DNA of 64,000 nucleotides from contig DAOSLF010000006.1 in the NCBI GenBank assembly GCA_035368605.1, forward strand, positions 17,301-81,300, read 5' to 3'. Of the stretch, positions 6,200 through 59,882 are shown piece by piece. The position numbers were made by a program, and so were the translations under genes. Source of the DNA: Candidatus Omnitrophota bacterium (GTDB lineage: Bacteria > Omnitrophota > Omnitrophia > Omnitrophales > Aquincolibacteriaceae). The notes below the pieces were generated by a model. That model saw nothing but the letters and a program-made list of their open reading frames with translations, did no database searches and had not been told where the DNA came from. Each line of letters begins with the position of its first letter. Within the stretch, counting starts at the first letter, position 1.

Positions 6200-6273
<74 letters not shown>

Positions 6274-10049: not shown

Positions 10050-12055
10050 CCGCCGGCCTGTTTCTTCAAAAGAAACACGTGGGCCGGACATGTGTGGGGA
10101 TCCAGGCGGACATAGTTACGGGAACCCTTCCAGTAATACTTCTCTCCCGTCAAAAGGTCCCGCATCTGATACGTCTGCCATTCCTCGATATCGAACTTCC
10201 ACACCGGCAGTGTCACGAAGTCTTCCTGGGGATGGAACGGATCGAGGTTTACGACCGTGATGATGATATTGGAAAGGTCCGGAGTCCTTTTCCCGTAGCA
10301 GAGGATCATGTCGTTCTTCGTGTCGTAGAACTCGAGATTGTCATAATCCTGGAGCGCGGGGTTCTCGCGACGAAGGCGGTTCACCTGCCCGACCAGCTCC
10401 TTGATGTTCCCCGGCCGGTCCCAGTCCCACACCTTGTACTGGTATTTTTCGGAATCGAGGTATTCCTCGGAACCCGGGGCCTTCGCGCGGTTCTCGCAAA
10501 GCTCGAAACCGCTGTAGATGCCGTAGGACGGAGAGAGCGTTGCCGCGAGGATCAACCGGATCATGAACGCCGGCCGGCCGCCTTTCTGCAGAAACTCGTG
10601 GAGGATGTCCGGCGTGTTGGTGAACAGATTGCCCCGGTAGTAGAGTCGCATCTCCGTCTGCGTCAGCTCCTCGAGGTACTGGCGGATCTCCCATTTGACG
10701 TTCCGCCACGTGAAATAGGTGTAGGACTGCGTGAACCCCGCCTTGGCCAGGTACTTCATGACCTTCGGCCGCGTGAAAGCCTCCGCGAAGAAGATCGCCT
10801 CGGGGTGGTCCTTCTGGACCTCGCCGATCAGCCAATGCCAGAAGCCGAGCGGCTTCGTGTGCGGGTTATCGATGCGGAAAATGCGGACGCCTTTCCCGAG
10901 CCAGAAGAGGATGATGCTCTTCATCTCGTCCCAGAGCTCGCGCCAGTGATCGCAGTGAAAATCAAGAGGGTAGATATCCTCATACTTTTTAGGGGGGTTC
11001 TCCGCGTAATGGATTGTCCCGTCCGGGCGGTGAAAGAACCACTCGGGATGTTCCTTCACGTAGGGATGATCGGGCGAGCACTGGAACGCGATATCCAGGG
11101 CGATCTCGATTCCCAGGTCGCCGGCTTTTTTCACAAAAAGCTCGAAATCCTTCATCGTCCCGAGATCCGGGTGAACGGACTTGTGCCCGCCTTCCTTGCT
11201 CCCGATGGCCCACGGCGAGCCGGGCGAATTTTTCTCCGGCGTGAGGGAATTATTGGGCCCCTTGCGTTTTGTGATGCCGATCGGATGGATGGGCGTGAGA
11301 TAGAGGACGTCGAACCCCATCTCCTTGATTTCGGGCAAGCGCCGGATGCAATCCCTGAAGGTCGCGCTCTCCCCTTCTTTTCGGCCCTGGGAACGCGGGA
11401 AGATCTCGTACCAGGACCCGAATTCGGCCTTCTTTCGGTCGGCCACGAGTTCATAGACCTCCGAATCGCTTTCAAGCCGCCGGAGAGGATATTTGAGAAA
11501 AAGCTCCCTGGTCGCGGACGGTTGCACGAGCTTCAGGACCTCCGCGCTCGCGCCTTCCGCGGCTTCAAGGGAGCGGATCAGTCCGGCGATCGTCCGGGCG
11601 TCCCCGCCTTTGACGAGCGCCGCGACTTCCTTCAGCAGCGCAAGACCTTCGAGGACCTCGCTCAGGACGGAGGCAGCGACGGGACATTTCTTTTCCACGT
11701 GGCGGAACCAGGACGCCACGGGATCCATCCACGCGACAATACGGTAAAGATAACGGGTATTCTCTTCCGCGCGGAACTCCCCGCGCCAACGGTCATTCTC
11801 GGCAAAGACCATCGGCGCTTCTTTCCACGCCTTTTCGGACTTTTTGCGGTACTGGACACAGGCCGCGATCACGTCATGCCCGTCCTTGAAGATGTCCGCC
11901 TCGACCTTCACAAGGTCGCCCGCGACGCATTTGACCGGATACCTGCCGCCGTCCACGGACGGCTGGACGTTCTCGATAATAATGTCCCGGATATCGCCGG
12001 CGGAATGGGCGATCGACCCGGCGCACGGCTTGGCGGTTTTTTTTCTGGGTTTCAT
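10046..12055 (-). CDS. glgE: Alpha-1,4-glucan:maltose-1-phosphate maltosyltransferase GlgE
   Basis: 669 aa with the GlgE N-terminal domains and a GH13 catalytic core (IFPRS..., YLTPIHP..., RIDNPH). Confidence 0.85.
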   Translation of the reverse strand: MKPRKKTAKPCAGSIAHSAGDIRDIIIENVQPSVDGGRYPVKCVAGDLVKVEADIFKDGHDVIAACVQYRKKSEKAWKEAPMVFAENDRWRGEFRAEENTRYLYRIVAWMDPVASWFRHVEKKCPVAASVLSEVLEGLALLKEVAALVKGGDARTIAGLIRSLEAAEGASAEVLKLVQPSATRELFLKYPLRRLESDSEVYELVADRKKAEFGSWYEIFPRSQGRKEGESATFRDCIRRLPEIKEMGFDVLYLTPIHPIGITKRKGPNNSLTPEKNSPGSPWAIGSKEGGHKSVHPDLGTMKDFELFVKKAGDLGIEIALDIAFQCSPDHPYVKEHPEWFFHRPDGTIHYAENPPKKYEDIYPLDFHCDHWRELWDEMKSIILFWLGKGVRIFRIDNPHTKPLGFWHWLIGEVQKDHPEAIFFAEAFTRPKVMKYLAKAGFTQSYTYFTWRNVKWEIRQYLEELTQTEMRLYYRGNLFTNTPDILHEFLQKGGRPAFMIRLILAATLSPSYGIYSGFELCENRAKAPGSEEYLDSEKYQYKVWDWDRPGNIKELVGQVNRLRRENPALQDYDNLEFYDTKNDMILCYGKRTPDLSNIIITVVNLDPFHPQEDFVTLPVWKFDIEEWQTYQMRDLLTGEKYYWKGSRNYVRLDPHTCPAHVFLLKKQAGG

Positions 12056-12088
12056 CTCGGCTCCTTCATGATAGTGGATTGCATGAGA

Positions 12089-14344
12089 TCAAAGATCAAG
12101 ACAGAAAATATTCATCCCGAGCGGCGGAAGCTGGCAGTTGATCGAGAACGGACGACCCTGCCACGGCGTGCCGGACGAATGGATTCCGCCCTGGTTCCCG
12201 AGCCCGCACCCCCCGTAATCGAACGCCTCGCTGTTGAAGATTTCCCGGTAATATCCCCAGCACGGCACGCCGACCCGGTAATTCTCCCGGATCACGGGCG
12301 TCATGTTGAAGGTGAAGACAAGGACTTGCCGCCGGTCGTACGACCATCTCAAAAAACTCACGACGGAGCTGTCGGCGTCCGAAAAATCGATCCATTCGAA
12401 ACCGCCGCCCGTGAGCTCCCCTTCGTGAAAGGCGCGGTAATCCCGGTAGAGGCGGTTCAGGTCCCTCACAAGGTTATTGATCCGGCGATGGCGGGAATGC
12501 CTCAGGAGATGCCAGTCAAGCGACTGATGCATGTTCCACTCGCCCCATTGGGCCAGGTCGTTCCCCATGAACAGGAGCTTCTTCCCCGGATGCGCGAACA
12601 TGTATCCGAAGAAAAGCCGGAGGTTCGCGAATTTCTGGCGTTCGTCTCCCGGCATCTTCCCGATCAGGGACCCTTTGCCGTGCACCACTTCGTCATGAGA
12701 GATCGGGAGCACGAAATTTTCCGAGAAGGCATACCACATCGAAAAGGTCATCATGCCCTGGTGGAATTTCCGGTAGACCGGGTCCTTCGAGAAATATTCG
12801 AGGGCATCGTGCATCCAGCCCATATTCCATTTGAGGCTGAAACCGAGTCCGCCCGAGTGGGTCGGCTTTGACACGGCCGGCCAGGCGGTGGATTCCTCGG
12901 CGATCGTGAGGATGCCGGGATAGCGGCCATGAACGACCTCGTTGAATTTCTTGAGGAACGCAACCGCCTCCAGGTTCTCGCGGCCGCCGTAGGCGTTGGG
13001 TTCCCATTCCCCCGGCTTCCTCGAGTAATCCAGATAAAGGATGCTCGCAACCGCGTCGACGCGGAGTCCGTCCACGTGGTATTTTTCGATCCAGAACAGT
13101 GCGTTCGATATCAGGAAGTTCTGGACTTCGACCTTGCCGTAATCGAAAACGAGCGTCCCCCAGTCCCGGTGCTCCGCCTTTTTCCAGTTTTCATAGGCGT
13201 AGATCTGCCGGCCGTCGAAGTCCACGAGACCGTGCCCGTCCTTCGGGAAATGGGCCGGCACCCAGTCGAGGATCACACCGATCCCGTGCTGGTGGCAAAG
13301 GTCCACGAGGAACATGAGCCCGTCGGGATCGCCGAAGCGGCTCGTTGGCGCGTAATAATTGACAACCTGATACCCCCATGATTCATCCAGGGGATGCTCC
13401 ATCACCGGCATCAGCTCGATGTGCGTGTAGCCCATGTGCTTGACATAGCCGACCAGTTTCAGGGCCAGGTCCCTGTAGTCCATGAACCCCCATCCGTTCT
13501 TTTCCTCGCGCATCCAGGAGCCCGGATGGACCTCATAGACGGAAATGGGCTGTTCGAGCGGGTTCTTTCCCGCGCGGCACGCGAGCCAATCCTGGTCGTT
13601 CCACTGGTAATGGTCAAGGCAGGCCACGATCGAGGCCGTCTTCGGACGCAGCTCCGTGCGGAACGCATACGGATCTGTCTTGTACCGGACCTGCCCGTCC
13701 ACCGCGGACCGGATCGCGAACTTGTAAATCTCGCCCTCGCCGATCCCGGGGATGAAAAGGCCCCAAACGCCGGAGTAGCGGATGCGGGCCATGGGATGAG
13801 CGCCCGGAATCCAGTGATTGAAGTTGCCGATGACGCTCACGCTTTTGGCGTTCGGCGCCCAGACCGCGAAGTGCACGCCATCGACGCCCCGGATCCGCAC
13901 GGGTTTCGCGCCGAACTTTTCGTACGTGTTGAAGTGGTTCCCCTCGCTGATCAGGTAAAGGTCAAAATCACTGATCTCCGGGTAAAACGCGTAAGGGTCC
14001 TCGGATTCCTGCGCGAACCCCGTCGCGTCGCGGAAACCGACCCGGTAATGCGGAATGGCAGACGCCGGCTTCCGGATCTCCGCCTCAAAAAGCCCCCCGG
14101 GATGGACCTTCTCCATCGCCTGCCGTCGATCTTCGCCCGGAAGACGGACCCAGGCTTCCGCGGCCCTCGGGAAAAAGGCGCGGACCGTCATGCGCCGGGC
14201 GTGAGATTCCGCATGGGGCCCGAGGATCTCGAACGGCTCGTCCTCTTCGAAGCGGGCGACACGCTCGAATCCATGAAACGGAAATTTCCCGGAAAGGAAC
14301 CGCCGGGCCAGCTTTTTATTTTTTTTGATGAATGATTTGAACAT
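12089..14344 (-). CDS. glgB: 1,4-alpha-glucan branching enzyme GlgB
   Basis: 751 aa with a CBM48 N-domain and a GH13 core (GYTHIELMPV, DWVPAHF, GLRVDAV). Confidence 0.9.
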   Translation of the reverse strand: MFKSFIKKNKKLARRFLSGKFPFHGFERVARFEEDEPFEILGPHAESHARRMTVRAFFPRAAEAWVRLPGEDRRQAMEKVHPGGLFEAEIRKPASAIPHYRVGFRDATGFAQESEDPYAFYPEISDFDLYLISEGNHFNTYEKFGAKPVRIRGVDGVHFAVWAPNAKSVSVIGNFNHWIPGAHPMARIRYSGVWGLFIPGIGEGEIYKFAIRSAVDGQVRYKTDPYAFRTELRPKTASIVACLDHYQWNDQDWLACRAGKNPLEQPISVYEVHPGSWMREEKNGWGFMDYRDLALKLVGYVKHMGYTHIELMPVMEHPLDESWGYQVVNYYAPTSRFGDPDGLMFLVDLCHQHGIGVILDWVPAHFPKDGHGLVDFDGRQIYAYENWKKAEHRDWGTLVFDYGKVEVQNFLISNALFWIEKYHVDGLRVDAVASILYLDYSRKPGEWEPNAYGGRENLEAVAFLKKFNEVVHGRYPGILTIAEESTAWPAVSKPTHSGGLGFSLKWNMGWMHDALEYFSKDPVYRKFHQGMMTFSMWYAFSENFVLPISHDEVVHGKGSLIGKMPGDERQKFANLRLFFGYMFAHPGKKLLFMGNDLAQWGEWNMHQSLDWHLLRHSRHRRINNLVRDLNRLYRDYRAFHEGELTGGGFEWIDFSDADSSVVSFLRWSYDRRQVLVFTFNMTPVIRENYRVGVPCWGYYREIFNSEAFDYGGCGLGNQGGIHSSGTPWQGRPFSINCQLPPLGMNIFCLDL

Positions 14345-14452
14345 GGGTCATGTTTCTTCCGAAACCAAACCGCTTACGAAAAGACGAACCGAAGGGATAA
14401 ACAGCTCTTCGCCCGCCGTAGTCCCGACTTCCATATCGCTGTTCTAAAAGAG

Positions 14453-14526
14453 TCGGGGTGAGAGGATTTGAACCTCCGACTTCTTGCTCCCAAAGCAAGC
14501 GCTCTAGCCACCTGAGCTACACCCCG
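14453..14526 (-). tRNA. tRNA-Pro (anticodon TGG)
   Basis: The minus strand reads CGGGGTGTAGCTCAGGTGGCTAGAGCGCTTGCTTTGGGAGCAAGAAGTCGGAGGTTCAAATCCTCTCACCCCGA, a 74-nt cloverleaf. Confidence 0.85.
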
Positions 14527-14719
14527 GTGAACCTTGTAATCTTTTCAACAGACAACGGAGACTGCCATGATTGCCTTAAATACTTCTCAATGGAAATCAT
14601 GGCACCCCGATATGTTCCGATTATAACGACTTGTGACGCTTTCAGCTACAGCGCCATTTCCACTTTGTGCCGTTGTTGCGCCCTTCGTAAACAGGACAGC
14701 GGCTGGTATTCGCAAACGA

Positions 14720-15808
14720 TTAAAAGATCGACCGTTCCTTGTAGACGCTCAGAACGAGGCCGAGCGCGATGCAGTTCATGACAAACGAGGAACCGCCGTA
14801 GCTGACAAGCGGGAGCGGCACCCCCGCGATCGGCATGAGGCCGATGGTCATCCCGACATTAATCAGCACATGGGCCACGAGCAGGGCGAGCACGCCGCCC
14901 GAAAGGAGCTTGGCCTTGATATCGGTCGTGTGCTGCATAATCAGGAAGATCGAATGGAAGAGGTAGGCGTAAAGGCAGAGGACCAGCATGCTCCCGATGA
15001 AACCGAGCTCCTCCCCGATCACGCAAAAAATAAAGTCCGTGTGGTGCTCGGGCACGAAATGAAGCTGCGTCTGTGTGCCTGCCAGGTATCCTTTCCCGAA
15101 AAGACCGCCGGAGCCGACAGCGATTTTGGACTGCACCGCGGTGTATCCGGATCCGAGCGGATCGAGATTGGGATTCAGGAAGACGAGGATGCGCTTCCGC
15201 TGGTACTCCTTGAGCATCTCCCAGGCGAGCGGCGCGGCGACAAGGACTCCCGCGAGCGCGATGATGAGATACCGCCAGCGGATCCCCCACAAGAAGAGGA
15301 TAGTCAGGACCATCGGCACAAAGAGAAGCGCGCTGCCGAGGTCGGGCTGTTTCGCGACCAGGATCCAGGGTACCGCCACGATCGCGAGCGCGCCGAGAAC
15401 GATCTTCAGCTGGCCCTGGACGGGATTGTGGCTCCCGAGGTAATTGACAAGCGCGAGCAGCGTGCCGAGCTTCGCGAATTCCGACGGCTGAATCACAAAA
15501 GGTCCGAGCGTCAGCCATCGCTGCGCGCCCAGGCGCGTCGAGCCGACGAAATAGACCAGGATCAGCAGAAGGATGCTAAAACCGTAGAAAAGGTACGCGA
15601 CACTGATGAACGGGCGGTAACCGAGATACGGCACCGCGATCATGACGGCCAGCCCGATGGCGATCCAGAAGATCTGTTTGACCTCATATTGCCCGGGATC
15701 ACGGAACGAGGCGCTGTAGATGAAAAAGAGCCCGAGCGCGGCCAAACCTATGACCGCGAGGATCAAAGGCAGATGAAGGTCTTTAAACAGCTTTTGGAGC
15801 ATCGACAC
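14720..15808 (-). CDS. rodA: Rod shape-determining SEDS glycosyltransferase RodA
   Basis: 362 aa polytopic FtsW/RodA family protein, downstream of mrdA. Confidence 0.85.
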   Translation of the reverse strand: MSMLQKLFKDLHLPLILAVIGLAALGLFFIYSASFRDPGQYEVKQIFWIAIGLAVMIAVPYLGYRPFISVAYLFYGFSILLLILVYFVGSTRLGAQRWLTLGPFVIQPSEFAKLGTLLALVNYLGSHNPVQGQLKIVLGALAIVAVPWILVAKQPDLGSALLFVPMVLTILFLWGIRWRYLIIALAGVLVAAPLAWEMLKEYQRKRILVFLNPNLDPLGSGYTAVQSKIAVGSGGLFGKGYLAGTQTQLHFVPEHHTDFIFCVIGEELGFIGSMLVLCLYAYLFHSIFLIMQHTTDIKAKLLSGGVLALLVAHVLINVGMTIGLMPIAGVPLPLVSYGGSSFVMNCIALGLVLSVYKERSIF

Positions 15809-17507
15809 CCTTCCAGACCTCGAGAATCTGTTTGACGATCCTCGCGCTCGTGATACCGCCGGAACCGCCGTGCTCGACGAAAACGACGAAGGCGATCTTC
15901 GGATTTTTGTAGGGAAAGAACCCCGTCATCCAGCTATGGGCCTTCTGGGGAGCCTGCGCCGTCCCGGTCTTGGCAGCCAGTTTGTCAAAATCAACGCGCG
16001 CGAGCTGCCCCGTCCCGTAGTCGGATTCCACGACCTGCAGCATCGCCCGTTTGATCACATTCAGGTTCTCTTCCCGGATCGCGACGCGCAACGGTTCCCC
16101 GACGGCCGCGTCGTTCTGCGTCAGATGCGGATCGACGAATTTCCCGTTCTTGGCGATGATCGCGGTCAGTCGCAGGATCTCGAGCGGCGTGACCAGGACA
16201 TAGCCCTGACCGATCGCCATGTTGAGCGTCTCCCCCTGATACCATGGCTGTTTGAACCGCGAGCGCTTCCAGGCGGCGTCCGGAATCAGTCCCGGCGTCA
16301 GGCGACTGATTTCAAGTCTCATCGGCTCACCAAGACCGAGCTCGTGCGCGTATTTCGCGATATCATCCGGAGAGAGTTTCGTGGAGAGGTTGTAGAAGTA
16401 AACATTGCACGAACGTTCGATGGCCTCATAGAGATTGATGCTGCGGTGCCCTCCCTCGAACCAGCACTTGGCCACGCGTCCGGATTTGCCGAGTTTGAAC
16501 TTCCCGTTGCAGTAGAAACGGGTCTGCGGCGTGATCTTCCCGAGCTCGAGCGCGGCAAGCGCCGTCACGAGCTTAAAGACCGATCCCGGGGGATAGGCCG
16601 CCCCGATCGAACGGTCCAGCATGGGGCTATTGATATCCTTGAGGACGGACAGACGGCGGCCGCTCGCGGAAGGGCTTACGAAAATATTCGGATCATACGC
16701 GGGCGAACTCGCCATCGCGAGAAGCCCTTCGGTCTCGAGGTCCATGACGGCAACGCTCGCATGCTGTCCCTTGATCAGATCCATGATCTTTTTCTGGAAA
16801 TCCAGATCGAGGGTCAGCCTCAGATCGGCACCCGGTTCGGGCGGCCGCCGGGAAAGCACCTGCACCACTTTTCCGCGGGCATCCACCTCGAGTTGCTCTC
16901 CCCCCCTCCAGCCGCGGAGGCTGTCATCAAAGAATTTCTCGATCCCCGCACGTCCGATCATCGAGTTAATGCCGAACCGGTCGCGATCGAGGCGATCATA
17001 TTCGGCCATGTTGATCGCGCCGATATAGCCGATCACATGGGACGCCGTCTCCCCGTAAGGATAATACCGGACACCGTCGACACGGATCGCGACGCCCGGA
17101 AGTTCGGGCTTGCGCTCCTCGATCAGGATCGCGAGTGATTTCGCCACGTCCTTTTTGATCACCGCGGGAGCGAACGGATATTCCCGGCCGGCGCTCATCT
17201 GGTGGCGAACCTCTTTTTCTTTCATGCCCAGGAGCTTTGCGAGGCGCGGGTAGACCTCGGGCGTCACATCCTCCGGAAAAGCGACCACGTCATAGGCCGC
17301 GCGATTCGTCGCGAGCAATCGTCCCGCGCGGTCGAAGACGCGCCCCCGGGACGCTTCCATCGGGATCAGACGAATATGGTTGCGAGTGCTCAGTCCCCGG
17401 TAATAACTGCCCTGAAGCACCTGGACATGAAAGAGACTGACGGCCAGGATCGCAAGCACCGCGAACACCGCTATCTGGAGGAAATGCAGGCGCGGGAATT
17501 TCATCAT
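15783..17507 (-). CDS. mrdA: Penicillin-binding protein 2 (elongasome transpeptidase)
   Basis: 574 aa with an N-terminal TM segment, a PBP dimerisation domain and a transpeptidase domain. It sits within the mre operon. Confidence 0.85.
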   Translation of the reverse strand: MMKFPRLHFLQIAVFAVLAILAVSLFHVQVLQGSYYRGLSTRNHIRLIPMEASRGRVFDRAGRLLATNRAAYDVVAFPEDVTPEVYPRLAKLLGMKEKEVRHQMSAGREYPFAPAVIKKDVAKSLAILIEERKPELPGVAIRVDGVRYYPYGETASHVIGYIGAINMAEYDRLDRDRFGINSMIGRAGIEKFFDDSLRGWRGGEQLEVDARGKVVQVLSRRPPEPGADLRLTLDLDFQKKIMDLIKGQHASVAVMDLETEGLLAMASSPAYDPNIFVSPSASGRRLSVLKDINSPMLDRSIGAAYPPGSVFKLVTALAALELGKITPQTRFYCNGKFKLGKSGRVAKCWFEGGHRSINLYEAIERSCNVYFYNLSTKLSPDDIAKYAHELGLGEPMRLEISRLTPGLIPDAAWKRSRFKQPWYQGETLNMAIGQGYVLVTPLEILRLTAIIAKNGKFVDPHLTQNDAAVGEPLRVAIREENLNVIKRAMLQVVESDYGTGQLARVDFDKLAAKTGTAQAPQKAHSWMTGFFPYKNPKIAFVVFVEHGGSGGITSARIVKQILEVWKGVDAPKAV

Positions 17508-52339: not shown

Positions 52340-53244
52340 GGTTTGACCTCAATCACTCTTAGTTTCGCGCTGCGCGCACGTGGATTATCAATGATTTCCG
52401 AACGATTTGCAACAACGGGCTTGCGCGTCACAATTTCTGCGATGTTTTTGGCGGCAAGTTCCCGGAATTTTTCCTTCACGATCCGGTCCTCGAGCGAATG
52501 GAAGCTGATCACCCCGAGCCTTCCGCGAGGCGCGAGGCGTTTTACGGCGCCGTCCATGCCGTCCCGCAGGGCTCCGAACTCATCATTGACGAGGATGCGC
52601 AACGCCTGGAAGACCCTCGTCGCGGGATTCCGCCGGTTCCGCTGAGGCCGTTTGGCCTTTGCGAAACGGTCGCGACCCGGGAGCGAACTTTCAATGACTT
52701 CGCAAAGGCGGGAGGTCGTGTCGACAGGGTTCCGGTAGCGTTCCCGGACGATCGCGGCGGCAAAGCGGCGGGAATTGCGTTCCTCACCGTACTCGTAAAT
52801 GATCCTCGCCAGCTCCTTTTCGGGGAGCGTCATCACGTAGTGCGACGCCTTATTCCCCGCATCCGGATCCATTCGCATGTCCAGGTCCCCTTCCTTTTGG
52901 AAACTGAAACCGCGCTTTCCGTCCTCCAGCTGGTCCGACGACATTCCGATATCCATCAGGATCGCGTCCACCGCCGGCACTTTTAATTCTTCCAGCACTT
53001 CGTCGATCTTCCTGAAATTGCTCCGGATCAGCGTCACTCTCGCGTCCGCGCCGAACCGCTTTGTGCAGCGTTCGATCGCGTCCGGATCCTGGTCCAGCCC
53101 GATCAGCCGGCCCGCCGGTCCGATTCGCTCAAGGATCGCCGTCGCGTGGCCGCCGCTGCCGAGCGTCGCGTCGACCGCCACAACACCGGGCCTGAGCCCC
53201 AACAATCCGATCGTTTCCCGTAAAAGAACCGGTTTATGATGCAA
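52336..53244 (-). CDS. rsmH: 16S rRNA (cytosine1402-N4)-methyltransferase RsmH (MraW)
   Basis: 302 aa; DATLGSGGH... the MraW family. Confidence 0.9.
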   Translation of the reverse strand: MHHKPVLLRETIGLLGLRPGVVAVDATLGSGGHATAILERIGPAGRLIGLDQDPDAIERCTKRFGADARVTLIRSNFRKIDEVLEELKVPAVDAILMDIGMSSDQLEDGKRGFSFQKEGDLDMRMDPDAGNKASHYVMTLPEKELARIIYEYGEERNSRRFAAAIVRERYRNPVDTTSRLCEVIESSLPGRDRFAKAKRPQRNRRNPATRVFQALRILVNDEFGALRDGMDGAVKRLAPRGRLGVISFHSLEDRIVKEKFRELAAKNIAEIVTRKPVVANRSEIIDNPRARSAKLRVIEVKP

Positions 53245-53572
53245 AACTGCGAATGGCCTCTTCCTGGGTGGAGTAGGATTCCATCAGTCCGTTGACGCCG
53301 ATCAGGCGAAACGTCTTTTCCACTTCGGGTCGCAGGTTACAAAGTTTGATATCGCCCTTCTGTTCGCGGACCTTGCGCAGGCGATCCACCAGGAGGCCAA
53401 CGCCGGCGAGTTCCACGCGACGCGTTTCCGCGAGGTCAAGCAGAAGTCGCTTCTGGTTCCGGTTGAGAAGACGGTTCATGCGCCCTTTCATCTTGATCAT
53501 GCTCAGCACGCTGAGATCGCCTTCAAAACGGATCACTTCGACTCCCAGTCCCGCTTTTGTCTGATACACCAT
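53234..53572 (-). CDS. STAS-domain protein (anti-sigma-factor antagonist, SpoIIAA-like) inserted between mraZ and rsmH
   Basis: 112 aa with the STAS pattern (EVIRFEGDLSV...RLLLDLAETRRVELAGVGLLVDRLRKVREQKGDIKLCNL). Confidence 0.75.
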   Translation of the reverse strand: MVYQTKAGLGVEVIRFEGDLSVLSMIKMKGRMNRLLNRNQKRLLLDLAETRRVELAGVGLLVDRLRKVREQKGDIKLCNLRPEVEKTFRLIGVNGLMESYSTQEEAIRSFAS

Positions 53573-54168: not shown

Positions 54169-54205
54169 AAAAAAGGCCCGGAAAGCGCTTTTTTGCCTTC
54201 CGGGC
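54169..54205 (-). terminator. Intrinsic terminator after the zinc-ribbon gene
   Basis: On the minus strand: GCCCGGAA-14-nt loop-TTCCGGGC followed by CTTTTTTGT. Confidence 0.55.
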
Positions 54206-54266: not shown

Positions 54267-54983
54267 TCAGGATTCGTAGAAAAGAATGCGCGAACAATTT
54301 TCACACGTGATGATCTGCTCCCCGATCTGAAGTTCGTTGATGACCTGGGGGCGCAACTGCATCTGACACGCGCTGCAGAACTCGCCACTGACAGGCGCTA
54401 GCGCAAGACCCTCTTTTTTCTGGACAATCCGGTTGTAGAGGTCGCCGACTTCGGGAGGGAGCTGTCCAATAATCTCCTGCCGCTGTTTTGTGATCTCCTG
54501 CAATCGCGACTGGAGATTTTTTTCCTGATTGACGAGTTCCTGATCCTTCGCCTGATGTTCGCGCGTGATCCCGGCGAAACGGTCCTTTTCTTTCAGGACC
54601 TCGTCCTTCACGGCCTCGACCTCATCCATCTTCCGGATGATCTCTTCCTCGAGCAGCGAATTATCTGCCTTGAGCGAAGCGATCTCCTGGAGAAGGGCAT
54701 TGTATTCCTTGTTTGTTTTGATCTGGGAGAGCTGACCATCGAGCTTCTTGATCTGGGCCTCTTTCTGCGCAAGCTCGATCTCTTTTTCCTTGAGCTTGAG
54801 CTGCATGTCCTTTTGGGTCTGTTCGATAATCGTGAGATGAACTCTTTTACTTTCAAGCTCACGCGCGAGCGCGGCACGGCTTTCGGGAATCTCGGCTAGA
54901 AGAAGCCGTGTCTGGTGAATCTCGCTGTCGAAAGACTGGGCTCGCTTGAGGCTCTCGATATTCTGCAATACGGGGTTGGCCAT
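54267..54983 (-). CDS. Coiled-coil protein with a C-terminal C4 zinc ribbon (zinc-ribbon domain / DUF164-like)
   Basis: 238 aa with long heptad repeats and CSACQMQL...CENCSRIL at the C-terminus. Confidence 0.75.
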   Translation of the reverse strand: MANPVLQNIESLKRAQSFDSEIHQTRLLLAEIPESRAALARELESKRVHLTIIEQTQKDMQLKLKEKEIELAQKEAQIKKLDGQLSQIKTNKEYNALLQEIASLKADNSLLEEEIIRKMDEVEAVKDEVLKEKDRFAGITREHQAKDQELVNQEKNLQSRLQEITKQRQEIIGQLPPEVGDLYNRIVQKKEGLALAPVSGEFCSACQMQLRPQVINELQIGEQIITCENCSRILFYES

Positions 54984-55052: not shown

Positions 55053-55589
55053 TCAGGAATTCTTCAGGCCGAAGCCGATATCGTTCAGCCCGGCGATCTC
55101 GTCCGGCGTGAGGCGGCAATAACGGAAAAAGCCGTTTGAAAGCCCCTTGGCCGCCATGGGCGAACGCGCCTCCACCGGGGGGGCGGACGGAAGCTCAGTG
55201 GCCGGAATCCATTTGGAGACTTTGACCGCTTCTTTCCCTTCCCCCGCTCCCGCGACCTTCTCATATTCAAAAAAAGCAAGGTGCTCATGACAGGAGCGGA
55301 GCCGGAAGATCCGGTCCTGATCCAGGCGGGGGTAGAAAAAGTAAACCATGCCGTCGTCGGGCATCAACATCTTCAGCTTGTCGATCTCATTCGCGAGCTC
55401 CGCGGTCTGAAAATCGGACATGGGCTGATAAAAAATCCTCACCCAGATCCTTTCGTCAGCGCTCTTGAAAAGAAGCGGAAAACTTGAAGCATCGGAGACG
55501 AATCCACTCTGGGGATGAAGTTCCCGGATCGTCGCACGGACCGCTTCGAACACGCGGTCCCGGTTCACCCGTTCGCCGGCCAGGATCAC
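55053..55589 (-). CDS. Hypothetical protein, third gene of the ParA-CBM48 operon (about 178 aa from a GTG start overlapping the upstream stop)
   Basis: A long ORF with strong GC3 bias (17 of 20 codons sampled). The GTG overlaps the TGA of the preceding gene (GTGA). There are no recognisable motifs. Confidence 0.45.
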   Translation of the reverse strand: MILAGERVNRDRVFEAVRATIRELHPQSGFVSDASSFPLLFKSADERIWVRIFYQPMSDFQTAELANEIDKLKMLMPDDGMVYFFYPRLDQDRIFRLRSCHEHLAFFEYEKVAGAGEGKEAVKVSKWIPATELPSAPPVEARSPMAAKGLSNGFFRYCRLTPDEIAGLNDIGFGLKNS

Positions 55590-56377
55590 GGGGCCACCTC
55601 CCCCGCGCCACGCTCCGCAGACTCCACCCAATCGACCAGGGTCAGACGCTCGGGAGAAGTCCACGCCCGCGCCGGACGGAAATGAAGCTGTTCGACGTTC
55701 AGTTTCGGTTCGAAGAAATGATCCCGGTCGCTCAGATCCAGCCAGCCGAGCCAACCCGGATGGATCTGCAGATGCTTGGATGCAAGCGCGGCGAACCGTT
55801 CAAAAAGGGTGCTGCCGACCGGCGGGTCAGCTTTTGCCTGGAGCAGGATAAAACACTCAAGATGCGGGTTGAGCGCGAGGCCGGCCTTGAGCATCTTGTA
55901 ACCTTCCGTGAGGGATTCCGACGTGGGCTTAAGCATCAGCACCCATTTATCAAGAAGGTGCATGATCTTCGGGTAATAAAGAAGATGGCGGTATTCAAAA
56001 TCGAGGAAGATGTTCCGGTTCCCCAACGGCCGGGAGGGACCGCAAGGGCCAGCCTCCAGGATATCCCGCAACTCATCCCAGAAAAGCGTATGTCTCCGAA
56101 TGTTCCTGCCGAAGGACTCCGTTCTCCGGCCGGCGGAGTTCCAGGCGCAGACATTCGACGCTCGGGACAAGAGCGATACGAGCGAGCCAGGCTCGACCTC
56201 AGAACCCATGCGGGAGGCAAGATACGTGTTCAGGAAAAGAGAATCTTCGTCGCCATCGGGACTCGAAACGCTCATCACCTGGATATCAGGGGTTTCCCGT
56301 ACGGAAATACGGCCCGAATCTTCAAAGATCGGCGAAACATCTTTCAGCCCCCTGACCAGCTTCTTCGAAGTTTCCAT
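55586..56377 (-). CDS. ParA/MinD-fold protein with a degenerate Walker A (pseudo-ATPase), second gene of the operon
   Basis: The start is placed at METSKK; its ATG overlaps the upstream TGA by 1 nt (TGATG). It aligns to the ParA fold (VMSVSSPDGDEDSLF in place of IAIANQKGGVGKTT; NIFLDFEY...; ECFILLQAKAD resembling DxxxxD). Confidence 0.55.
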   Translation of the reverse strand: METSKKLVRGLKDVSPIFEDSGRISVRETPDIQVMSVSSPDGDEDSLFLNTYLASRMGSEVEPGSLVSLLSRASNVCAWNSAGRRTESFGRNIRRHTLFWDELRDILEAGPCGPSRPLGNRNIFLDFEYRHLLYYPKIMHLLDKWVLMLKPTSESLTEGYKMLKAGLALNPHLECFILLQAKADPPVGSTLFERFAALASKHLQIHPGWLGWLDLSDRDHFFEPKLNVEQLHFRPARAWTSPERLTLVDWVESAERGAGEVAP

Positions 56378-57477
56378 CAAGCGAGCTCCACGTAGGAATC
56401 GACACCGCCGTAGGCGTTCTCTTTCCGGAGTGGCTGGCTCGGGTCGACCTGCCATTCACCGTCCACGATGAACTTGTAGCGAAAAGACTTCAGGTCCACG
56501 TGAATGACCTTCTGCCAGAGACCGTCGTCGCTACGACGCACGAGAGCCTCGGGAACCCAATGATTGAAATCCCCCGCGATCTCGACCGAGGACGCGGTTT
56601 TGTTGCTGAACTGGAAAAGAATGCCATCCGCCATGGGTTTCGGACCGTAATGTTGTTTATAAACACTCTCCCACCCCAACTCCCGGGCCGGGAGTTTGCG
56701 ATCCCATTCCCGCTCGAGATACTCGACGGCAAGATTCAGATAATCCTGGAAGGCCGGCGAACCGGGCGCATACTGCGCGATACTCTGGCCCGCGGCCGCG
56801 GTCTCCTTCAGCATGACGTCCTCGTGGATGATCGTCCTGAAAAGCTGGTCCTTGAAATGCGCCCGCACCTCATCGTGAATCTCCTGGGAAAAGCTGAGCT
56901 GGGAGTTGAAGTTCGTAAGAAGCGCGTGGACGCCAAGCGGCGTCTGCCGCGAACGATTAACGACCTGAATGGTCTCGGAGATCTTCCCCAATCCATGCAA
57001 GGCAAAAAAAGACGGCTCGACAGGAATAATGACCTCGTCGGCCGCGTTCAGGGCATTCCACGTCAGGATTCCGAGGTTCGGCGGACAATCAAGAACGATA
57101 AAATCATATTTTCGGCGGTCGGCCTCGAGACGCAGGAAAAGGTCTTTCAGGAGCAGGTGGTGGTTCGGCATAAAATTGCATTCTTCTTCGAGGGCATTCA
57201 GGGAGGCATTGCACGGCATCAGGTCGAAATCGGGATAGAGAGAGCGTATGACCTGGCCGAATGAGGACGGGATGGCCTGGACCGGACTCAACAGTTCGTA
57301 AACCGTCGGAGCCCCTTTCAGTATCTTGATCCCAAGGCCGCAGGTGGAATGACCTTGCGGATCAAGGTCCACCAGCAACACTCTCTTCTGCAAGAAATGC
57401 AGGCATGCGGAGAGATTGATGCTTGTAGTCGTCTTGCCACATCCCCCTTTTTGATTCGCGATCGCGATAACTCTCAA
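56377..57477 (-). CDS. ParA/Soj-like deviant Walker-A ATPase fused to a C-terminal CBM48 / AMPK-beta glycogen-binding domain
   Basis: TTG start with a GGAGA RBS. MRVIAIANQKGGCGKTTTSINL...VLLVDLDPQ...IVLDCPP is the ParA core. The C-terminal 100 aa read ILFQFSNKTASSVEIAGDFNHWVPEALVRRSDDGLWQKVIHVDLKSFRYKFIVDGEWQVDPSQP, matching the AMPK1_CBM/CBM48 consensus (FNNW, YKFxVDGxW, DPS). Confidence 0.8.
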   Translation of the reverse strand: MRVIAIANQKGGCGKTTTSINLSACLHFLQKRVLLVDLDPQGHSTCGLGIKILKGAPTVYELLSPVQAIPSSFGQVIRSLYPDFDLMPCNASLNALEEECNFMPNHHLLLKDLFLRLEADRRKYDFIVLDCPPNLGILTWNALNAADEVIIPVEPSFFALHGLGKISETIQVVNRSRQTPLGVHALLTNFNSQLSFSQEIHDEVRAHFKDQLFRTIIHEDVMLKETAAAGQSIAQYAPGSPAFQDYLNLAVEYLEREWDRKLPARELGWESVYKQHYGPKPMADGILFQFSNKTASSVEIAGDFNHWVPEALVRRSDDGLWQKVIHVDLKSFRYKFIVDGEWQVDPSQPLRKENAYGGVDSYVELA

Positions 57478-57696
57478 GGGCGGAATCTCCTTAGTATTAA
57501 ACTAAAATGACATTTATATAACGGCTGTACTTTCTAAAGCTTGATAGTATTGGATCGCCCCTAGAGAACGGGCAGCAATATGAGCAGAAATCTCCCGGAA
57601 TGCCGCGAAAACGCGCGGAGCTTTAATGCGGGGTTATTCGGAATCATTAAACGAAAAATCCCCGCTGAGGGTCCCGCGAGGAAAAAGAAAGACGGA

Positions 57697-58650
57697 TCAG
57701 TGTCTTTCGAAGATCAGAAGGCGCTCGATGGGAACGATGCCTTTTACGTTCCGCATCCGGTCCGTAACGATGGCATAGGACTGCCGCTTCTGCTGGAGGG
57801 TTAAAAAGGCTTTTTCGATGGAGGTTTCCCCGGAGATAAAGACGGGAGCCCGGAGAAAATCGCGAAGTCCTTGAGCGCTTTCTCCCGCCCTGACCAGGTC
57901 AAAAACATAGATCATGCCTACGACGATCGACGGGATTTCCTCGTAAACGAGCATCATAAGCGATTTGTGCTCGCGGGCCAGATTCTTGACATCCTCGACC
58001 TTGCTGCGGATATCGACCATCGGGACCCGCTCCGCCGGGATCATGACGGAACAGACCTGAATCCTTTCAAAATCCAGGATCGTATGGATCAGCTTCTGTT
58101 CCTGGGCGCCGACCACCCCGCTCCGCGCGCTTTCCTCGATCAGGGACCGGAACGCTTCCTCGTTGACGAAGAGCTCCTCTTTTTGGTGTTTCTTGAGCGA
58201 CGGCCAGAGAAAACGTATCACGCTAAAAAAAACCAGAACCGGGAGATAGCACAGCTTCATAAAAAGCTGAAGCCAGAAGATCTGGTTTAAAAGATAAGGC
58301 ACGGCACGGAGCCTGGCGTAATCCTTTGGCACCATCTCTCCAAAGATAATCAGGATGGGTGCCACGACGGCAAGAACGATCCACTGGTTATGGATGCCGA
58401 ACTGGTGTTTCAGGAAATAAGCGAAGAGCGTAGTCGCGGTGATATTGACGACGTTGTGACCGATCAGGATCGCTGCAAGGAAATCCTGGGTCTTCTTCTG
58501 GAGCCCAACCACAGCCTGGGCCTTGCGATCCCCCTTTTCAGCCATATCCCGCAGCTGCAGTTTGTTAGAGGACACGAAAGCCATTTCGGAAGCCGAAAAA
58601 AACGCCGAAAGGCCGAGTGAAACAAGGAAGAGGACGGCGAGGCTGATCAC
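57697..58650 (-). CDS. CNNM/CorC-family transporter (DUF21 membrane domain plus a CBS pair)
   Basis: 317 aa with an N-terminal 4-TM DUF21 and tandem CBS domains. Confidence 0.8.
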   Translation of the reverse strand: MISLAVLFLVSLGLSAFFSASEMAFVSSNKLQLRDMAEKGDRKAQAVVGLQKKTQDFLAAILIGHNVVNITATTLFAYFLKHQFGIHNQWIVLAVVAPILIIFGEMVPKDYARLRAVPYLLNQIFWLQLFMKLCYLPVLVFFSVIRFLWPSLKKHQKEELFVNEEAFRSLIEESARSGVVGAQEQKLIHTILDFERIQVCSVMIPAERVPMVDIRSKVEDVKNLAREHKSLMMLVYEEIPSIVVGMIYVFDLVRAGESAQGLRDFLRAPVFISGETSIEKAFLTLQQKRQSYAIVTDRMRNVKGIVPIERLLIFERH

Positions 58651-59882
58651 GTCTTCCTCCTCACGAGAACATGCTGGATTCGATGCCGGATCATGCTCTG
58701 GATCACGAATTCAAAATCCTCCGTCTCATATTTCGCACCGTGGAGCGGAACGACCCCCATTTTTTCGAGCAGGAACCCTCCGACCGTCGAGGCATCTTCC
58801 GACGCAAGGCGCGAAAGGAAATATTCGTTGAAATCCTGCAGCGGGAGTTTGCCTTCGACCACGAACGTTCCCGTTTCGAGTTGCCGGATGGGTTGGTCCA
58901 CCTTGGCGTATTCGTCGTAGAACTCGCCAAAAATCTCCTCGAGCACATCCTCCTGCGTAACGATCCCGGCCGTCCCGCCGTACTCGTCGATACAGACCGC
59001 AAAACGCTCATTCTGCATGCGGAAGGTCTCGAGAAGATCGTCGATCCGCTTGCTTTCCGGAACGAAGAGAACCTTTCTCATAACTTCCCTGACGGGCAGT
59101 TTGGGTTCGAGCAGAAGGTAGTCGAGACACGTTACCGCGCCCAGGATATTGTCAAGCGACCCCTCGTAAACAGGCATGTGCCGGTAATGGTTCTTGCGGA
59201 TGGTCTCGGCGTGCATCTCCGCATCGCCAGCGATATCAAGACCGACCACATCAGTCCGCGGTGTCATGATATCCTTTACGGGCCGTTCGCCGAGGTCGAG
59301 AAGCTTTTGGATCATGAACCGTTCTTGTCCTCCCAGCACCCCTTCTTCTTCTCCGATCTTCACAAGCACCTTGAGTTCGCTTTCCGAGATTTTGTCGGAC
59401 TGGTCGATCTTCTCGCGCACAATCACCGAAAGGACTTTTTCGGTGACATACCGCATAAAGAGACGAAGGGGTGTAAAAACAAACGCAAAGAACTTGAGCG
59501 GCGGCGCCGTCAGAAGTGACAGCCGGACCTTGCTCCTCACCGCGATGATCTTCGGGAGTGTCTCGCAGGCAATGATGAAGATGACTGTGAAACCCGACAT
59601 GGCGATGCCGAGTTTTTCTTCTCCCAGATATTCGACAACAAGCAACGTGACCACCGCGGTCGCAAGGGTGTTCACGACGAGGTTCCCGATCAGAATGGTC
59701 CCAAGCGTGCGGCGGGGCTTTTCGAGCAATTCAAAAATCCATCTTGAGAGGCTGGGGAATTGTTCCTTGAGTTTACGACGATCCAGCTTGGACAGTGAGA
59801 AAAGCGCTGTCTCGGACGAAGAAAAGAACCCGGACAGCACAAAAAGCATGACCAGGGCCGCCAGATTAAGAGTCAGGTTCAT
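58647..59882 (-). CDS. CNNM/HlyC/CorC-family transporter (DUF21 plus CBS pair plus CorC_HlyC C-terminal domain)
   Basis: 411 aa; a tandem paralog of the downstream gene, joined by a 4-nt overlap. Confidence 0.8.
   Translation of the reverse strand: MNLTLNLAALVMLFVLSGFFSSSETALFSLSKLDRRKLKEQFPSLSRWIFELLEKPRRTLGTILIGNLVVNTLATAVVTLLVVEYLGEEKLGIAMSGFTVIFIIACETLPKIIAVRSKVRLSLLTAPPLKFFAFVFTPLRLFMRYVTEKVLSVIVREKIDQSDKISESELKVLVKIGEEEGVLGGQERFMIQKLLDLGERPVKDIMTPRTDVVGLDIAGDAEMHAETIRKNHYRHMPVYEGSLDNILGAVTCLDYLLLEPKLPVREVMRKVLFVPESKRIDDLLETFRMQNERFAVCIDEYGGTAGIVTQEDVLEEIFGEFYDEYAKVDQPIRQLETGTFVVEGKLPLQDFNEYFLSRLASEDASTVGGFLLEKMGVVPLHGAKYETEDFEFVIQSMIRHRIQHVLVRRKT

Follow-up and report, generated by a model that had tools for sequence, protein, structure and literature searches.

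The 64-kb stretch of DNA analysed here, hereafter the window, encodes three overlapping minus-strand genes, g1, g2 and g3, which belong to a module conserved in Omnitrophota. The best explanation, put forward tentatively, is that the module may be a ParA/MinD-type switch that uses α-glucan instead of DNA as its surface and organises glycogen granules. This reading is supported by the two domains of g1, an ATPase and a CBM48, which both exceed Pfam thresholds, by catalytic motifs that are invariant in 126 relatives, and by the retention of the sugar-contacting residues of the mammalian AMPKβ1 module in nearly all of these relatives.

ParA/MinD ATPases are a general bacterial means of placing chromosomes, plasmids, carboxysomes, chemoreceptor arrays and division sites. 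To our knowledge, the surface used by every described member is either the nucleoid or the membrane, and we know of essentially no mechanism by which bacteria distribute glycogen, a most widespread storage polymer. If the reading is true, g1 would represent the first candidate for a glycogen-distributing machine and a natural case in which the ParA switch was redirected to another kind of surface, and bacteria would possess an active, ATP-driven way of organising or inheriting polysaccharide storage granules. The proteins of the module are small and soluble, which makes them accessible in vitro and in E. coli despite the uncultured status of the phylum.

Organisation of the locus

The three reading frames have the coordinates given in the original prediction (Table 1), and their existence is borne out by the relatives found for each of them, so these are not chance ORFs. 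The predicted translation signals were likewise recovered: the TTG start of g1 is preceded by a Shine-Dalgarno sequence located 9 nt upstream, the ATG of g2 overlaps the TGA of g1 by one base (TGATG), and the GTG of g3 overlaps the stop codon of g2 (GTGA). Such start/stop overlaps are kept across the loci of relatives, indicating that translational coupling is conserved. The coding bias ascribed to g3 is real and lies in a range common to all three genes (GC3 of 0.68-0.71 in each). The upstream region of g1, which had been described as AT-rich, is so in its proximal 83 nt (37% GC), while the intergenic region overall has 46% GC, compared with 55-58% in the genes. A scan for sigma-70-like promoters found no site upstream of g1, with site counts not above those of shuffled controls, and an Rfam search of the window returned four tRNAs only and no regulatory RNA in the g1 upstream region.

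A search for the same operon in related genomes had been proposed, and the g1-g2 arrangement recurs in every locus inspected: g1, with its CBM, is directly upstream of g2 even in the most divergent g2 subfamilies. Every organism-named source of relatives of the module belongs to Omnitrophota. The original prediction knew of no described system with this architecture, and no description was found in the literature on ParA with CBM48 and glycogen or on ParA of Omnitrophota.

Table 1. Features of the module, its surroundings and the glycogen genes of the window
Feature	Position	Strand	Remarks
g1, ParA/Soj-type deviant Walker A ATPase with C-terminal CBM48	56377..57477	-	366 aa, TTG start
g1 ATPase domain, residues 1-256	56710..57477	-	Catalytic motifs intact; canonical DNA-binding arginines absent
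g1 connector between ATPase and CBM, residues 257-276	56650..56709	-	Seven residues each kept in at least 90% of 126 sequences
g1 CBM48/AMPKβ-type glycogen-binding module (predicted), residues 277-366	56380..56649	-	Pfam and AMPKβ1 alignment
g2, P-loop-less protein, MinD/FlhG/ParA fold (predicted)	55586..56377	-	263 aa, translationally coupled to g1
g2 N-terminal motif K5-K-L-V-R-G-L-K-D-V-S-P-I-F18	56324..56368	-	Tail predicted disordered; candidate g1-activating peptide
g3, conserved small protein	55053..55589	-	178 aa, translationally coupled to g2
g3 C-terminal helix motif F-x-x-x-x-R-L-T-P-D-E-I-A-G-L-N-D-I-G-F-G-L	55062..55130	-	In distant loci, conserved better than the rest of g3
Upstream intergenic region of g1	57478..57696	-	AT-rich near start codon; Shine-Dalgarno AAGGAG at 57487..57492
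CT398-like coiled-coil and C4 zinc-ribbon protein	54267..54983	-	Pfam: Zn_ribbon_9 4.3e-12, CT398_CC 9.1e-10
Terminator-like hairpin	54176..54205	-	11 pairs, 8 G-C, T-run; after CT398-like gene; consensus match only
GlgE	10046..12055		Pfam
GlgB	12089..14344		Pfam

ATPase domain of g1

The assignment of g1 to the ParA/Soj-type deviant Walker A ATPases, originally based on the motif KGGCGKTT with its signature lysine, agrees with the Pfam matches, which exceed the curated thresholds for AAA_31 (residues 1-179; E 5.9e-48, 163.6 bits, cut-off 27) and CbiA (60.4 bits, cut-off 25.4). The closest solved structures are Myxococcus xanthus ParA (MxParA, 8ray, 7.8e-47) and Thermus thermophilus Soj (TtSoj, 1wcv, 1.9e-42), to which the ATPase domain is 39-40% identical. 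Full-length relatives containing both domains form more than 120 clusters, and residue conservation was counted over 126 sequences. The positions K10, G11, G12, C13, K15, T16, T17, D37, D39 and D130 are kept in all 126, and the G14 position is glycine in 124.

The arginines by which ParA binds DNA have been described for CcParA (R195 and R224) and for MxParA (R238) (PMC12462528, PMC7229837). None of the 126 sequences has arginine at the position of MxParA R238 (CcParA R224), 114 have an acidic residue (E or D) at that of R235 (CcR221), and 48 have arginine at that of R209 (CcR195); the ParA sequence 'PRNVRLSE' reads 'HE[SHND]V[LSAQ..]LKE' across the family. As judged from these alignments, g1 is family-wide without the canonical arginines used by ParA for nucleoid DNA binding, and because of this replacement glycogen may be the surface bound by the ATPase rather than its cargo.

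The original prediction implied the reverse arrangement, in which an ATP-bound g1 dimer would sit on DNA, the CBM48 would hold a granule as cargo, and g2 and g3 would modulate the ATPase, spacing granules along the chromosome in the manner of McdAB. The relationship of g1 to chromosomal ParA/Soj proteins fits this arrangement, and all well-studied cargo-positioning ParAs known to us use the nucleoid; g1 may also still bind DNA, because more than a third of the family has arginine at the CcParA R195 position and other basic residues can be used by ParA-like proteins. However, the complete loss of the R238 equivalent and the mostly acidic R235 position weaken it, in the known systems that we are aware of the cargo-binding element is on the partner protein and not on the ATPase, and a cargo-bound ATPase would not yield the usual diffusion-ratchet geometry. 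The nucleoid is thus considered an unlikely matrix.

It is far less probable still that g1 is a regular partition ParA of a chromosome or plasmid to which an accessory domain has been added. Some relatives are named 'chromosome partitioning protein' by JGI, and the closest solved relatives are of the Soj type. However, no match to the parS consensus was found in the window with up to three mismatches allowed, nor was a ParB domain, a ParB box II motif or a second ParA-like gene, and g2 and g3 have no ParB/Srx or HTH match, so the absence of a ParB/parS partition locus is upheld for the window and a chromosome partition locus was rejected. The NCBIfam equivalog ParA_partition scores 112.9 bits on g1, below its cut-off of 180, and the DNA-binding arginines are lost.

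CBM48 module of g1 and glycogen metabolism

The C-terminus of g1, in which an AMPKβ/CBM48 domain had been expected by profile search, exceeds the Pfam gathering thresholds for both AMPK1_CBM (residues 292-364; E 4.6e-10, 40.0 bits, cut-off 26.8) and CBM_48 (residues 277-342; E 5.4e-7, 30.3 bits, cut-off 22.4). The motifs FNHW and YKFIVDGEWQVDPSQP, quoted originally together with KGGCGKTT, are all found in g1. The domain aligns with structures of the rat AMPKβ1 CBM (4yef and 1z0m, phmmer E 8e-7) at about 30% identity to AMPKβ, and it also matches the CBM48 of the GlgB encoded in the window.

Mutation of W100, K126 or W133 in AMPKβ1 abolishes or weakens glycogen binding, with W100G and K126Q abolishing it (PMC6274970). 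The equivalents in g1 are W307, kept in 126 of the 126 relatives, and K335 and W342, each kept in 125; this conservation is not selectively above that of neighbouring residues, since conservation is high throughout the CBM of the family members. The preserved contact residues suggest that the g1 CBM48 is a glycogen binder. The domain shares its family and the sugar-contacting tryptophans and lysine with the CBMs of AMPKβ, plant PTST/FLO6 and SEX4, in which a CBM48 serves to recruit regulatory proteins to starch or glycogen. Unlike g1, these are eukaryotic kinase subunits, scaffolds and phosphatases, none of which is fused to a ParA/MinD ATPase.

The connector between the two domains is also conserved, with W258, R260, L262, P263, L267, G268 and W269 each kept in at least 90% of the 126 sequences, which suggests a structured rather than floppy link between ATPase and CBM. 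The uniform conservation of the connector and the entire CBM would fit a fixed protein interface, and the CBM of AMPKβ also contacts the kinase domain. The CBM48-like domain might accordingly have become a module for protein-protein interaction or dimerisation, in which case the operon would be a ParA-like orphan that acts on an unrelated cargo. This is improbable in view of the three glycogen-binding residues, which persist despite the low identity to AMPKβ, and of the match to the CBM48 of GlgB.

The presence of GlgE and GlgB in the same window, as originally predicted, was confirmed by Pfam and speaks for the α-glucan reading, as does the glycogen synthesis inferred for most of the Omnitrophota MAGs from Ace Lake (Antarctica) tabulated in PMC8542988. 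It counts against this reading that these genes are about 42 kb from the module, which adjoins the dcw cluster and not the glycogen genes.

The P-loop-less partner g2

Relatives of g2 form 120 clusters, with 232 representatives at 50% identity. An exhaustive profile search returned these representatives only, with no canonical ParA or MinD among them, and a Walker A-intact ancestor, sought among the distant relatives, was absent from its results. The original statement that g2 has no Walker A motif holds for the entire family: the P-loop position has the form S-P-D-x-x-x-D-S (SPDGDEDS in g2), and a GxxGK[ST]-type motif occurs in 0 of 234 full-length relatives.

The predicted structure of g2 has the MinD/FlhG/ParA (SIMIBI) fold, and the structures closest to the model are FlhG and FleN, not ParA. 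Of the proposal that g2 is a ParA-fold paralog of g1, the fold therefore stands, whereas paralogy detectable from sequence was rejected, hhalign of the two family profiles giving a probability of 0.1. No Pfam family matched any of 25 diverse g2 members, and NCBIfam gave no match to g2; the relationship of g2 to g1 is visible in the predicted structure alone. In contrast to FlhG and FleN, g2 has no Walker A motif, no Pfam similarity to MinD/ParA and no flagellar gene context.

The N-terminus of g2 contains a motif with the consensus [KR]K-L-x-R-G-L-K-D-[IVL]-S-P-L-F, present in 225 of the 234 full-length relatives and located in a segment of low predicted confidence (residues 1-20, pLDDT ~56). 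Within it, the spacing L-x-R-G-L-x-x-[IVL] equals that of L11, R13, L15 and L18, which constitute the ParA-binding motif of M. xanthus ParB (PMC12462528). Together with the missing P-loop, the retention of this ParB-like spacing would fit a role of g2 as a regulator of g1, and this peptide, rather than g3, is the candidate ATPase-activating element. In the region of g1 that corresponds to the ParB-binding pocket, three of six positions stay hydrophobic (L135, I137 and W140) and three are changed (E98, R177 and the variable position 172), so it is uncertain how the g2 peptide would dock. As a protein with a MinD fold, no P-loop and a ParB-like peptide, g2 would, if this reading is true, be an unusual pseudo-enzyme that regulates its own superfamily.

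Proposed cycle and comparison with known systems

In the proposed α-glucan switch, ATP-driven dimerisation of g1 would unite two CBM48 modules and thereby create avidity for the multivalent surface of glycogen, much as the pairing of two weakly binding C-terminal helices gives MinD dimers their affinity for the membrane. The tail of g2 would then dock at the edge of the g1 dimer and stimulate hydrolysis, releasing g1 monomers. A complex of g2 and g3, possibly including the CT398-like protein, would form the partner or cargo side. The resulting cycle could distribute or organise glycogen granules, or anchor something to them, and where cells are very small and contain few granules, it would secure their inheritance at division. 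Three elements of this picture are predicted here from sequence: glycan binding, the activation of the g1 ATPase by g2 and the absence of DNA binding. A more far-reaching version, in which glycogen would join nucleoid and membrane as a third matrix for ParA/MinD-type ATPases, is rather doubtful; g1 would have exchanged DNA binding for the CBM48, ATP-dependent dimerisation would set the avidity, and a nucleotide-blind g2 with its ParB-like peptide would reset the switch.

The module resembles ParABS (ParA/Soj with ParB) in the sequence of its ATPase, which retains all catalytic motifs, and in the ParB-like motif of g2. It differs by the absence of ParB/Srx-HTH and parS, the replaced arginines and the CBM48 on the ATPase; moreover, the body of ParB is a CTPase clamp, whereas that of g2 is predicted to have the MinD fold. 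In the McdA-McdB system, McdA binds the nucleoid and McdB, located on the carboxysome cargo, is largely disordered or coiled-coil. Unlike this and other cargo-positioning ParA systems, the module has its putative cargo- or surface-binding domain on g1 itself, and g2 appears to be a folded pseudo-ATPase.

MinD, a deviant Walker A ATPase that likewise has a C-terminal targeting element, offers a parallel to the proposed logic, in which dimerisation with ATP pairs two copies of a weakly binding element to create surface affinity and the peptide of a partner brings about release. However, MinD is targeted by an amphipathic membrane helix and g1 by a folded, predicted glycan-binding domain of about 90 residues. 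Homologues of MinC or MinE do not accompany the module, and the g1 sequence is nearer to Soj than to MinD.

Probable fourth gene and the dcw neighbourhood

Wherever a locus extends far enough, g3 is followed by a CT398-like gene; in locus L033, which has no separate g3, this gene comes after g2. It is kept in the most distant locus, L039, with a gap of 6 bp, and is probably a fourth member of the unit. Of the three-gene operon originally proposed, the coupling of g1, g2 and g3 therefore stands, but the unit probably comprises four genes. The hairpin that follows, found in a window whose total count of terminator-like sites is not above shuffled controls, is likely the end of the transcription unit.

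The module and the CT398-like gene are directly upstream of mraZ-STAS-rsmH-ftsL-ftsI (the dcw cluster) in every locus, L039 included, where the adjacency to mraZ is kept although the upstream neighbour genes differ. This invariable position raises an alternative absent from the original prediction, a division or cell-cycle positioning system like MinD, MipZ or PomXYZ, with the CBM48 as a sensor or anchor that ties the choice of division site or its timing to carbon storage, as the AMPKβ CBM ties kinase activity to glycogen. Several ParA/MinD ATPases regulate division, and PomXYZ of Myxococcus is, like the module, a three-protein ParA-like system linked to cell division, in which an N-terminal peptide of a partner activates the ATPase. 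PomZ, however, is a nucleoid binder, and its partners PomX and PomY are scaffolds of the coiled-coil type, unrelated in sequence or fold to g2 and g3. Adjacency to dcw is in itself weak evidence, because gene order is broadly conserved in the phylum. Furthermore, the unit is separated from mraZ by the hairpin and a distinct promoter-like site, no known FtsZ- or divisome-binding domain is present, and neither g2 nor g3 is similar to MinC, MinE, PomX or PomY. A division or cell-cycle positioning system is held to be unlikely.

The small protein g3

The third gene is real, as originally proposed: ORFs of about 178 aa (175-203 aa) are conserved at the syntenic position in more than 27 distinct loci, most or nearly all of them with an ATGA in which the start codon overlaps the stop codon of g2. 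These homologues were recovered by synteny and jackhmmer, a word-based search giving near-identical proteins only. In keeping with the prediction that g3 has no known domain, no match was found in Pfam (22 members scanned), NCBIfam or PDB sequences. The AF2 model, built from a near-single sequence, was unusable (pLDDT 42.8), and a restriction-endonuclease-like fold, suggested by weak Foldseek matches to this model (E >= 0.036), was disregarded.

In locus L033, the C-terminal helix of g3 is fused onto the C-terminus of g2, a fusion that supports the association of g2 with g3. The g3-like ORF of L039 ends in a motif comparable to this helix. Similar-looking tails follow g2, as judged by eye, in the relatives P0331 and P0354.

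Organisation of the operon

The three overlapping minus-strand reading frames of the original prediction were found at exactly the coordinates proposed, together with the TTG start and Shine-Dalgarno sequence of the first gene and the start-stop overlaps linking it to the second, and the second to the third. They encode a ParA-type ATPase ending in a CBM48 domain (g1), a MinD-like protein without a P-loop (g2) and a small protein (g3). The GC3 of these genes ranges from 0.68 to 0.71. The 219-nt spacer upstream of g1 has a GC content of 46%, which falls to 37% in the proximal 83 nt, the AT-rich region described earlier. A promoter-like site, recognised by consensus match only, is located 5' of mraZ.

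Coordinates of the operon and of neighbouring features in the window
Feature	Position	Strand	Remarks
g1	56377..57477	-	366 aa; TTG start; AAGGAG 9 nt upstream
g1 residues 13, 43 and 46	about 57340..57441		Invariant C, H and C
g2	55586..56377	-	263 aa; ATG shares one base with g1 TGA
g3	55053..55589	-	178 aa; GTG overlaps g2 TGA
CT398-like gene	54267..54983	-	Zn_ribbon_9 and CT398_CC matches (Pfam)
Terminator-like hairpin	54176..54205		3' of CT398-like gene; consensus match only
STAS-domain gene	53234..53572	-	Anti-sigma-antagonist-like; 104-114 aa; between mraZ and rsmH
CNNM/CorC-type gene pair	57697..59882	-	Tandem, overlapping; one without CorC_HlyC domain
Gene run with GlgE and GlgB	9459..17507	-	Also Maf, tRNA, RodA, PBP2
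GlgE	10046..12055	-	
GlgB	12089..14344	-	
Type I restriction-modification methylase subunit	3633..5957	-	HsdM_N and N6_Mtase
tRNA gene	6200..6273		Adjoins type I methylase gene

Conservation and gene order

Full-length relatives of g1 form more than 120 clusters at 90% identity (53-100% identity to g1) and all contain both domains; g2 is represented by 120 clusters. All sources that bear an organism name are assigned to Candidatus Omnitrophota/Omnitrophica, and 'Omnitrophica bacterium ADurb.Bin314' yields a g2 fragment that is 100% identical. When 1.84 billion representative proteins were searched exhaustively with a profile of the g2 alignment, 232 were retrieved, none of which is a canonical ParA or MinD. 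The same operon occurs in related genomes, namely at 32 distinct loci in the scanned GTDB species genomes, where all organism-named loci are from Omnitrophota MAGs, and on metagenome contigs.

The gene order in the GTDB loci and metagenome contigs is proB-proA-nadD-CNNM-CNNM-[g1]-[g2]-[g3]-CT398-like-mraZ-STAS-rsmH-ftsL-ftsI. A gene for ParA with CBM48 lies immediately upstream of g2 in every readable locus, including those of the two most divergent g2 subfamilies (loci L039 and L040, about 20% identity). The CNNM/CorC pair precedes the module in nearly all loci; L039 has genes for a histidine kinase, a response regulator and an HD-domain protein instead, while its g3-like, CT398-like, mraZ and dcw genes are kept downstream. 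The CT398-like gene is retained 3' of g3, with a gap of 6 bp in L039, which makes it a probable fourth component of the module. The adjacency to the dcw cluster is invariable, even where upstream synteny breaks in L039, which speaks for a division-related positioning or sensing system; however, a mechanistic handle for such a role is absent, and we regard this reading as unlikely.

The ATPase domain of g1

The g1 protein genuinely belongs to the deviant Walker A ATPases. Pfam places it in AAA_31 (E 5.9e-48), and among proteins of known structure M. xanthus ParA (8ray, E 7.8e-47) and T. thermophilus Soj (E 1.9e-42) come closest, with 39-40% identity. Across 126 aligned family members the Walker A residues K10, G11, G12, C13, K15, T16 and T17 are invariant, as are D37, D39 and the Walker B residue D130, and position 14 is glycine in 124 sequences; from this conservation the ATPase should be active. 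The invariant Walker A cysteine gives KGGCGKT, compared with KGGVGKT, and an invariant histidine at residue 43 gives DPQGH where Soj has DPQGN. C46 is invariant in an alignment of 32 g1-family sequences.

In the reference protein CcParA, R195 and R224 are conserved across ParA-like ATPases and R221 touches DNA (PMC7229837), while R238 of M. xanthus ParA, which is altered in the R238E variant (ParA*; PMC12462528), aligns with CcParA R224. In the g1 family the ParA segment PRNVRLSE is replaced by HE[SHND]V[L/S/A/Q..]LKE. Arginine occurs at the R238/R224 position in none of the 126 members; the R235/R221 position is E or D in 114 and the R209/R195 position is arginine in only 48. The canonical arginines used by ParA for non-specific DNA binding have been replaced family-wide and, judging from the sequences, DNA binding itself may have been lost. 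The module also falls outside the ParABS partition systems: g1 scores below the cut-off of the NCBIfam ParA equivalog, and the window contains no ParB, no parS and no second ParA. Ordinary DNA partition is accordingly considered highly improbable.

The CBM48 domain of g1

The C-terminus of g1, predicted to be a CBM48 module, scored above the Pfam cut-offs of both AMPK1_CBM (40.0 bits, cut-off 26.8) and CBM_48 (30.3 bits, cut-off 22.4), and aligns with the rat AMPKβ1 CBM structures 4yef and 1z0m with E about 1e-6. W307, K335 and W342 of g1 are equivalent to AMPKβ1 W100, K126 and W133, and Y356 and D360 correspond approximately, by eye, to L146 and N150. W307 is present in 126/126 family members, and K335, W342, Y356 (Y or F) and D360 each in 125/126. 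In AMPKβ1, W100G and K126Q abolish glycogen binding and mutations of W133 weaken it (PMC6274970). We think it improbable that the CBM of g1 has been turned into a protein-interaction module. By these conservation patterns, g1 is a ParA-type ATPase, expected to be active, in which the glycogen-binding module is preserved and the usual DNA-binding arginines are gone. A classical model, with the nucleoid as matrix and glycogen as cargo, is doubtful; the DNA-binding arginines are missing from g1, and the CBM is carried by the ATPase, not by its partner.

The 20-residue connector between the ATPase and the CBM is strongly conserved (W258, R260, L262, P263, L267, G268 and W269), which suggests that the two domains are held in a fixed geometry and are not loosely tethered. 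The g1 proteins of the most divergent lineages (L038:3664-4989 and L039:3743-5023) reach 426-440 aa and contain 60-70 additional residues between the ATPase and CBM48, so the connector is expandable.

The MinD-like protein g2

No match for g2 was found in Pfam or NCBIfam. An AlphaFold2 model built from 78 homologues (pLDDT 85.8, pTM 0.82), in which residues 1-30 are poorly ordered, resembles structures of the MinD/ParA class (FlhG 4rz2, E 2.7e-8, Foldseek). The fold assigned to g2 originally is supported by this model, but the term 'ParA paralog' is too strong because a relationship is invisible at the sequence level: none of 25 diverse g2 members matches a Pfam family, and hhalign of g2 against the g1 family gave a probability of 0.1. 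Judged by its modelled structure, g2 belongs to the MinD/ParA fold, from whose other members it diverged long ago and strongly. The supposed loss of Walker A extends to the whole family, as such a motif is found in 0/234 full-length relatives and the P-loop position is occupied by a conserved S-P-D-x-x-x-D-S; presumably g2 cannot bind nucleotide in the usual mode.

The best-conserved part of g2 is its N-terminal tail, where [KR]-K-L-x-R-G-L-K-D-[IVL]-S-P-L-F is present in 225/234 relatives; after it comes a linker whose length varies. The spacing of L7-x-R9-G10-L11-x-x-V14 in this tail equals that of the ParA-binding motif of M. xanthus ParB (L11, R13, L15 and L18; PMC12462528). Three of the six positions of the MxParA hydrophobic pocket are hydrophobic in g1, namely L135, I137 (V/I/L) and W140 (W/Y/F/L); two others carry a conserved charge instead (E98 and R177), and the sixth varies. 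The g2 protein is therefore regarded, with moderate confidence, as a probable activator of g1. An analogy is provided by FlhG, whose N-terminal peptide activates FlhF.

The small protein g3

Pfam and NCBIfam gave no match for g3, and a word-based search found near-identical proteins only. Iterative profile searches of syntenic loci identified it in 33 loci (29 distinct protein sequences), distant ones included, with its length conserved and, in most loci, an ATGA start over the g2 stop, which bears out its status as a coding gene. The protein can be divided into an α/β domain at the N-terminus (about 125 residues), a linker that varies and a conserved helix at the C-terminus, whose consensus is R-L-T-x-x-E-I-x-G-L-x-E-L-S-L-x-L. 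In one locus of Ca. Taenariivivens baikalensis (L033, 4932-5891) jackhmmer detected this helix motif joined to the end of g2, and a separate g3 is absent; such a natural fusion points to joint action of the two proteins. The C-terminal tails of two other g2 relatives (P0331 and P0354) resemble the g3 helix, by eye only.

Proposed mechanism

The module would resemble the ParA/MinD positioning systems in its working. It has no homology to McdB, MinE, MinC or PomX/Y. Since g1 carries a C-terminal targeting module and lacks the DNA-binding residues, MinD logic fits better than ParABS logic. Beside g1 stand an obligate MinD-fold neighbour with a ParB-like tail, g2, and a third, co-evolving protein, g3. 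On the basis of sequence, predicted structure and synteny, we tentatively propose, as a reading with somewhat less than even chances, that the module is a ParA-type switch operating on glycogen. ATP-dependent dimerisation of g1 would pair two weak CBMs and create avidity for the multivalent glycogen surface, and the g2 peptide would set off hydrolysis and release. In this way the module could organise glycogen granules, space them or secure their inheritance or, alternatively, recruit a g2-g3(-CT398-like) complex to them. Many Omnitrophota are very small cells, in which random partition of a few granules would be unreliable. GlgE and GlgB, which synthesise α-glucan by the maltose-1-phosphate route, are both encoded in the window, as had been noted. 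Glycogen synthesis has been inferred for most of the tabulated Omnitrophota MAGs from Ace Lake, an Antarctic lake, whereas some lineages, such as Kappaea, Aadella and Orphnella, are reported to produce trehalose alone (PMC8542988).

As originally supposed, the architecture appears to be new: the full-text library searched, which does not extend to subscription-only journals, contains no description of ParA fused to CBM48, of a ParA-like glycogen system or of this Omnitrophota module. If the proposal is true, glycogen would represent a new class of matrix for the ParA/MinD ATPase family, a credible possibility.

Neighbouring genes

The CT398/HP0958-like gene, encoding a coiled coil and a zinc ribbon, is always located between the ParA module and mraZ. 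Its relatives in Chlamydia and Helicobacter bind RpoN and regulators of secretion or flagellar ATPases. A STAS-domain gene follows mraZ in all loci examined (the window, L001, L003, L005 and L039); apart from this unusual insertion, the dcw cluster begins in the canonical way. A type I methylase gene with an adjoining tRNA gene was also found. GlgE and GlgB lie in a single run with RodA and PBP2, and storage-glucan genes are thus placed among cell-shape genes.
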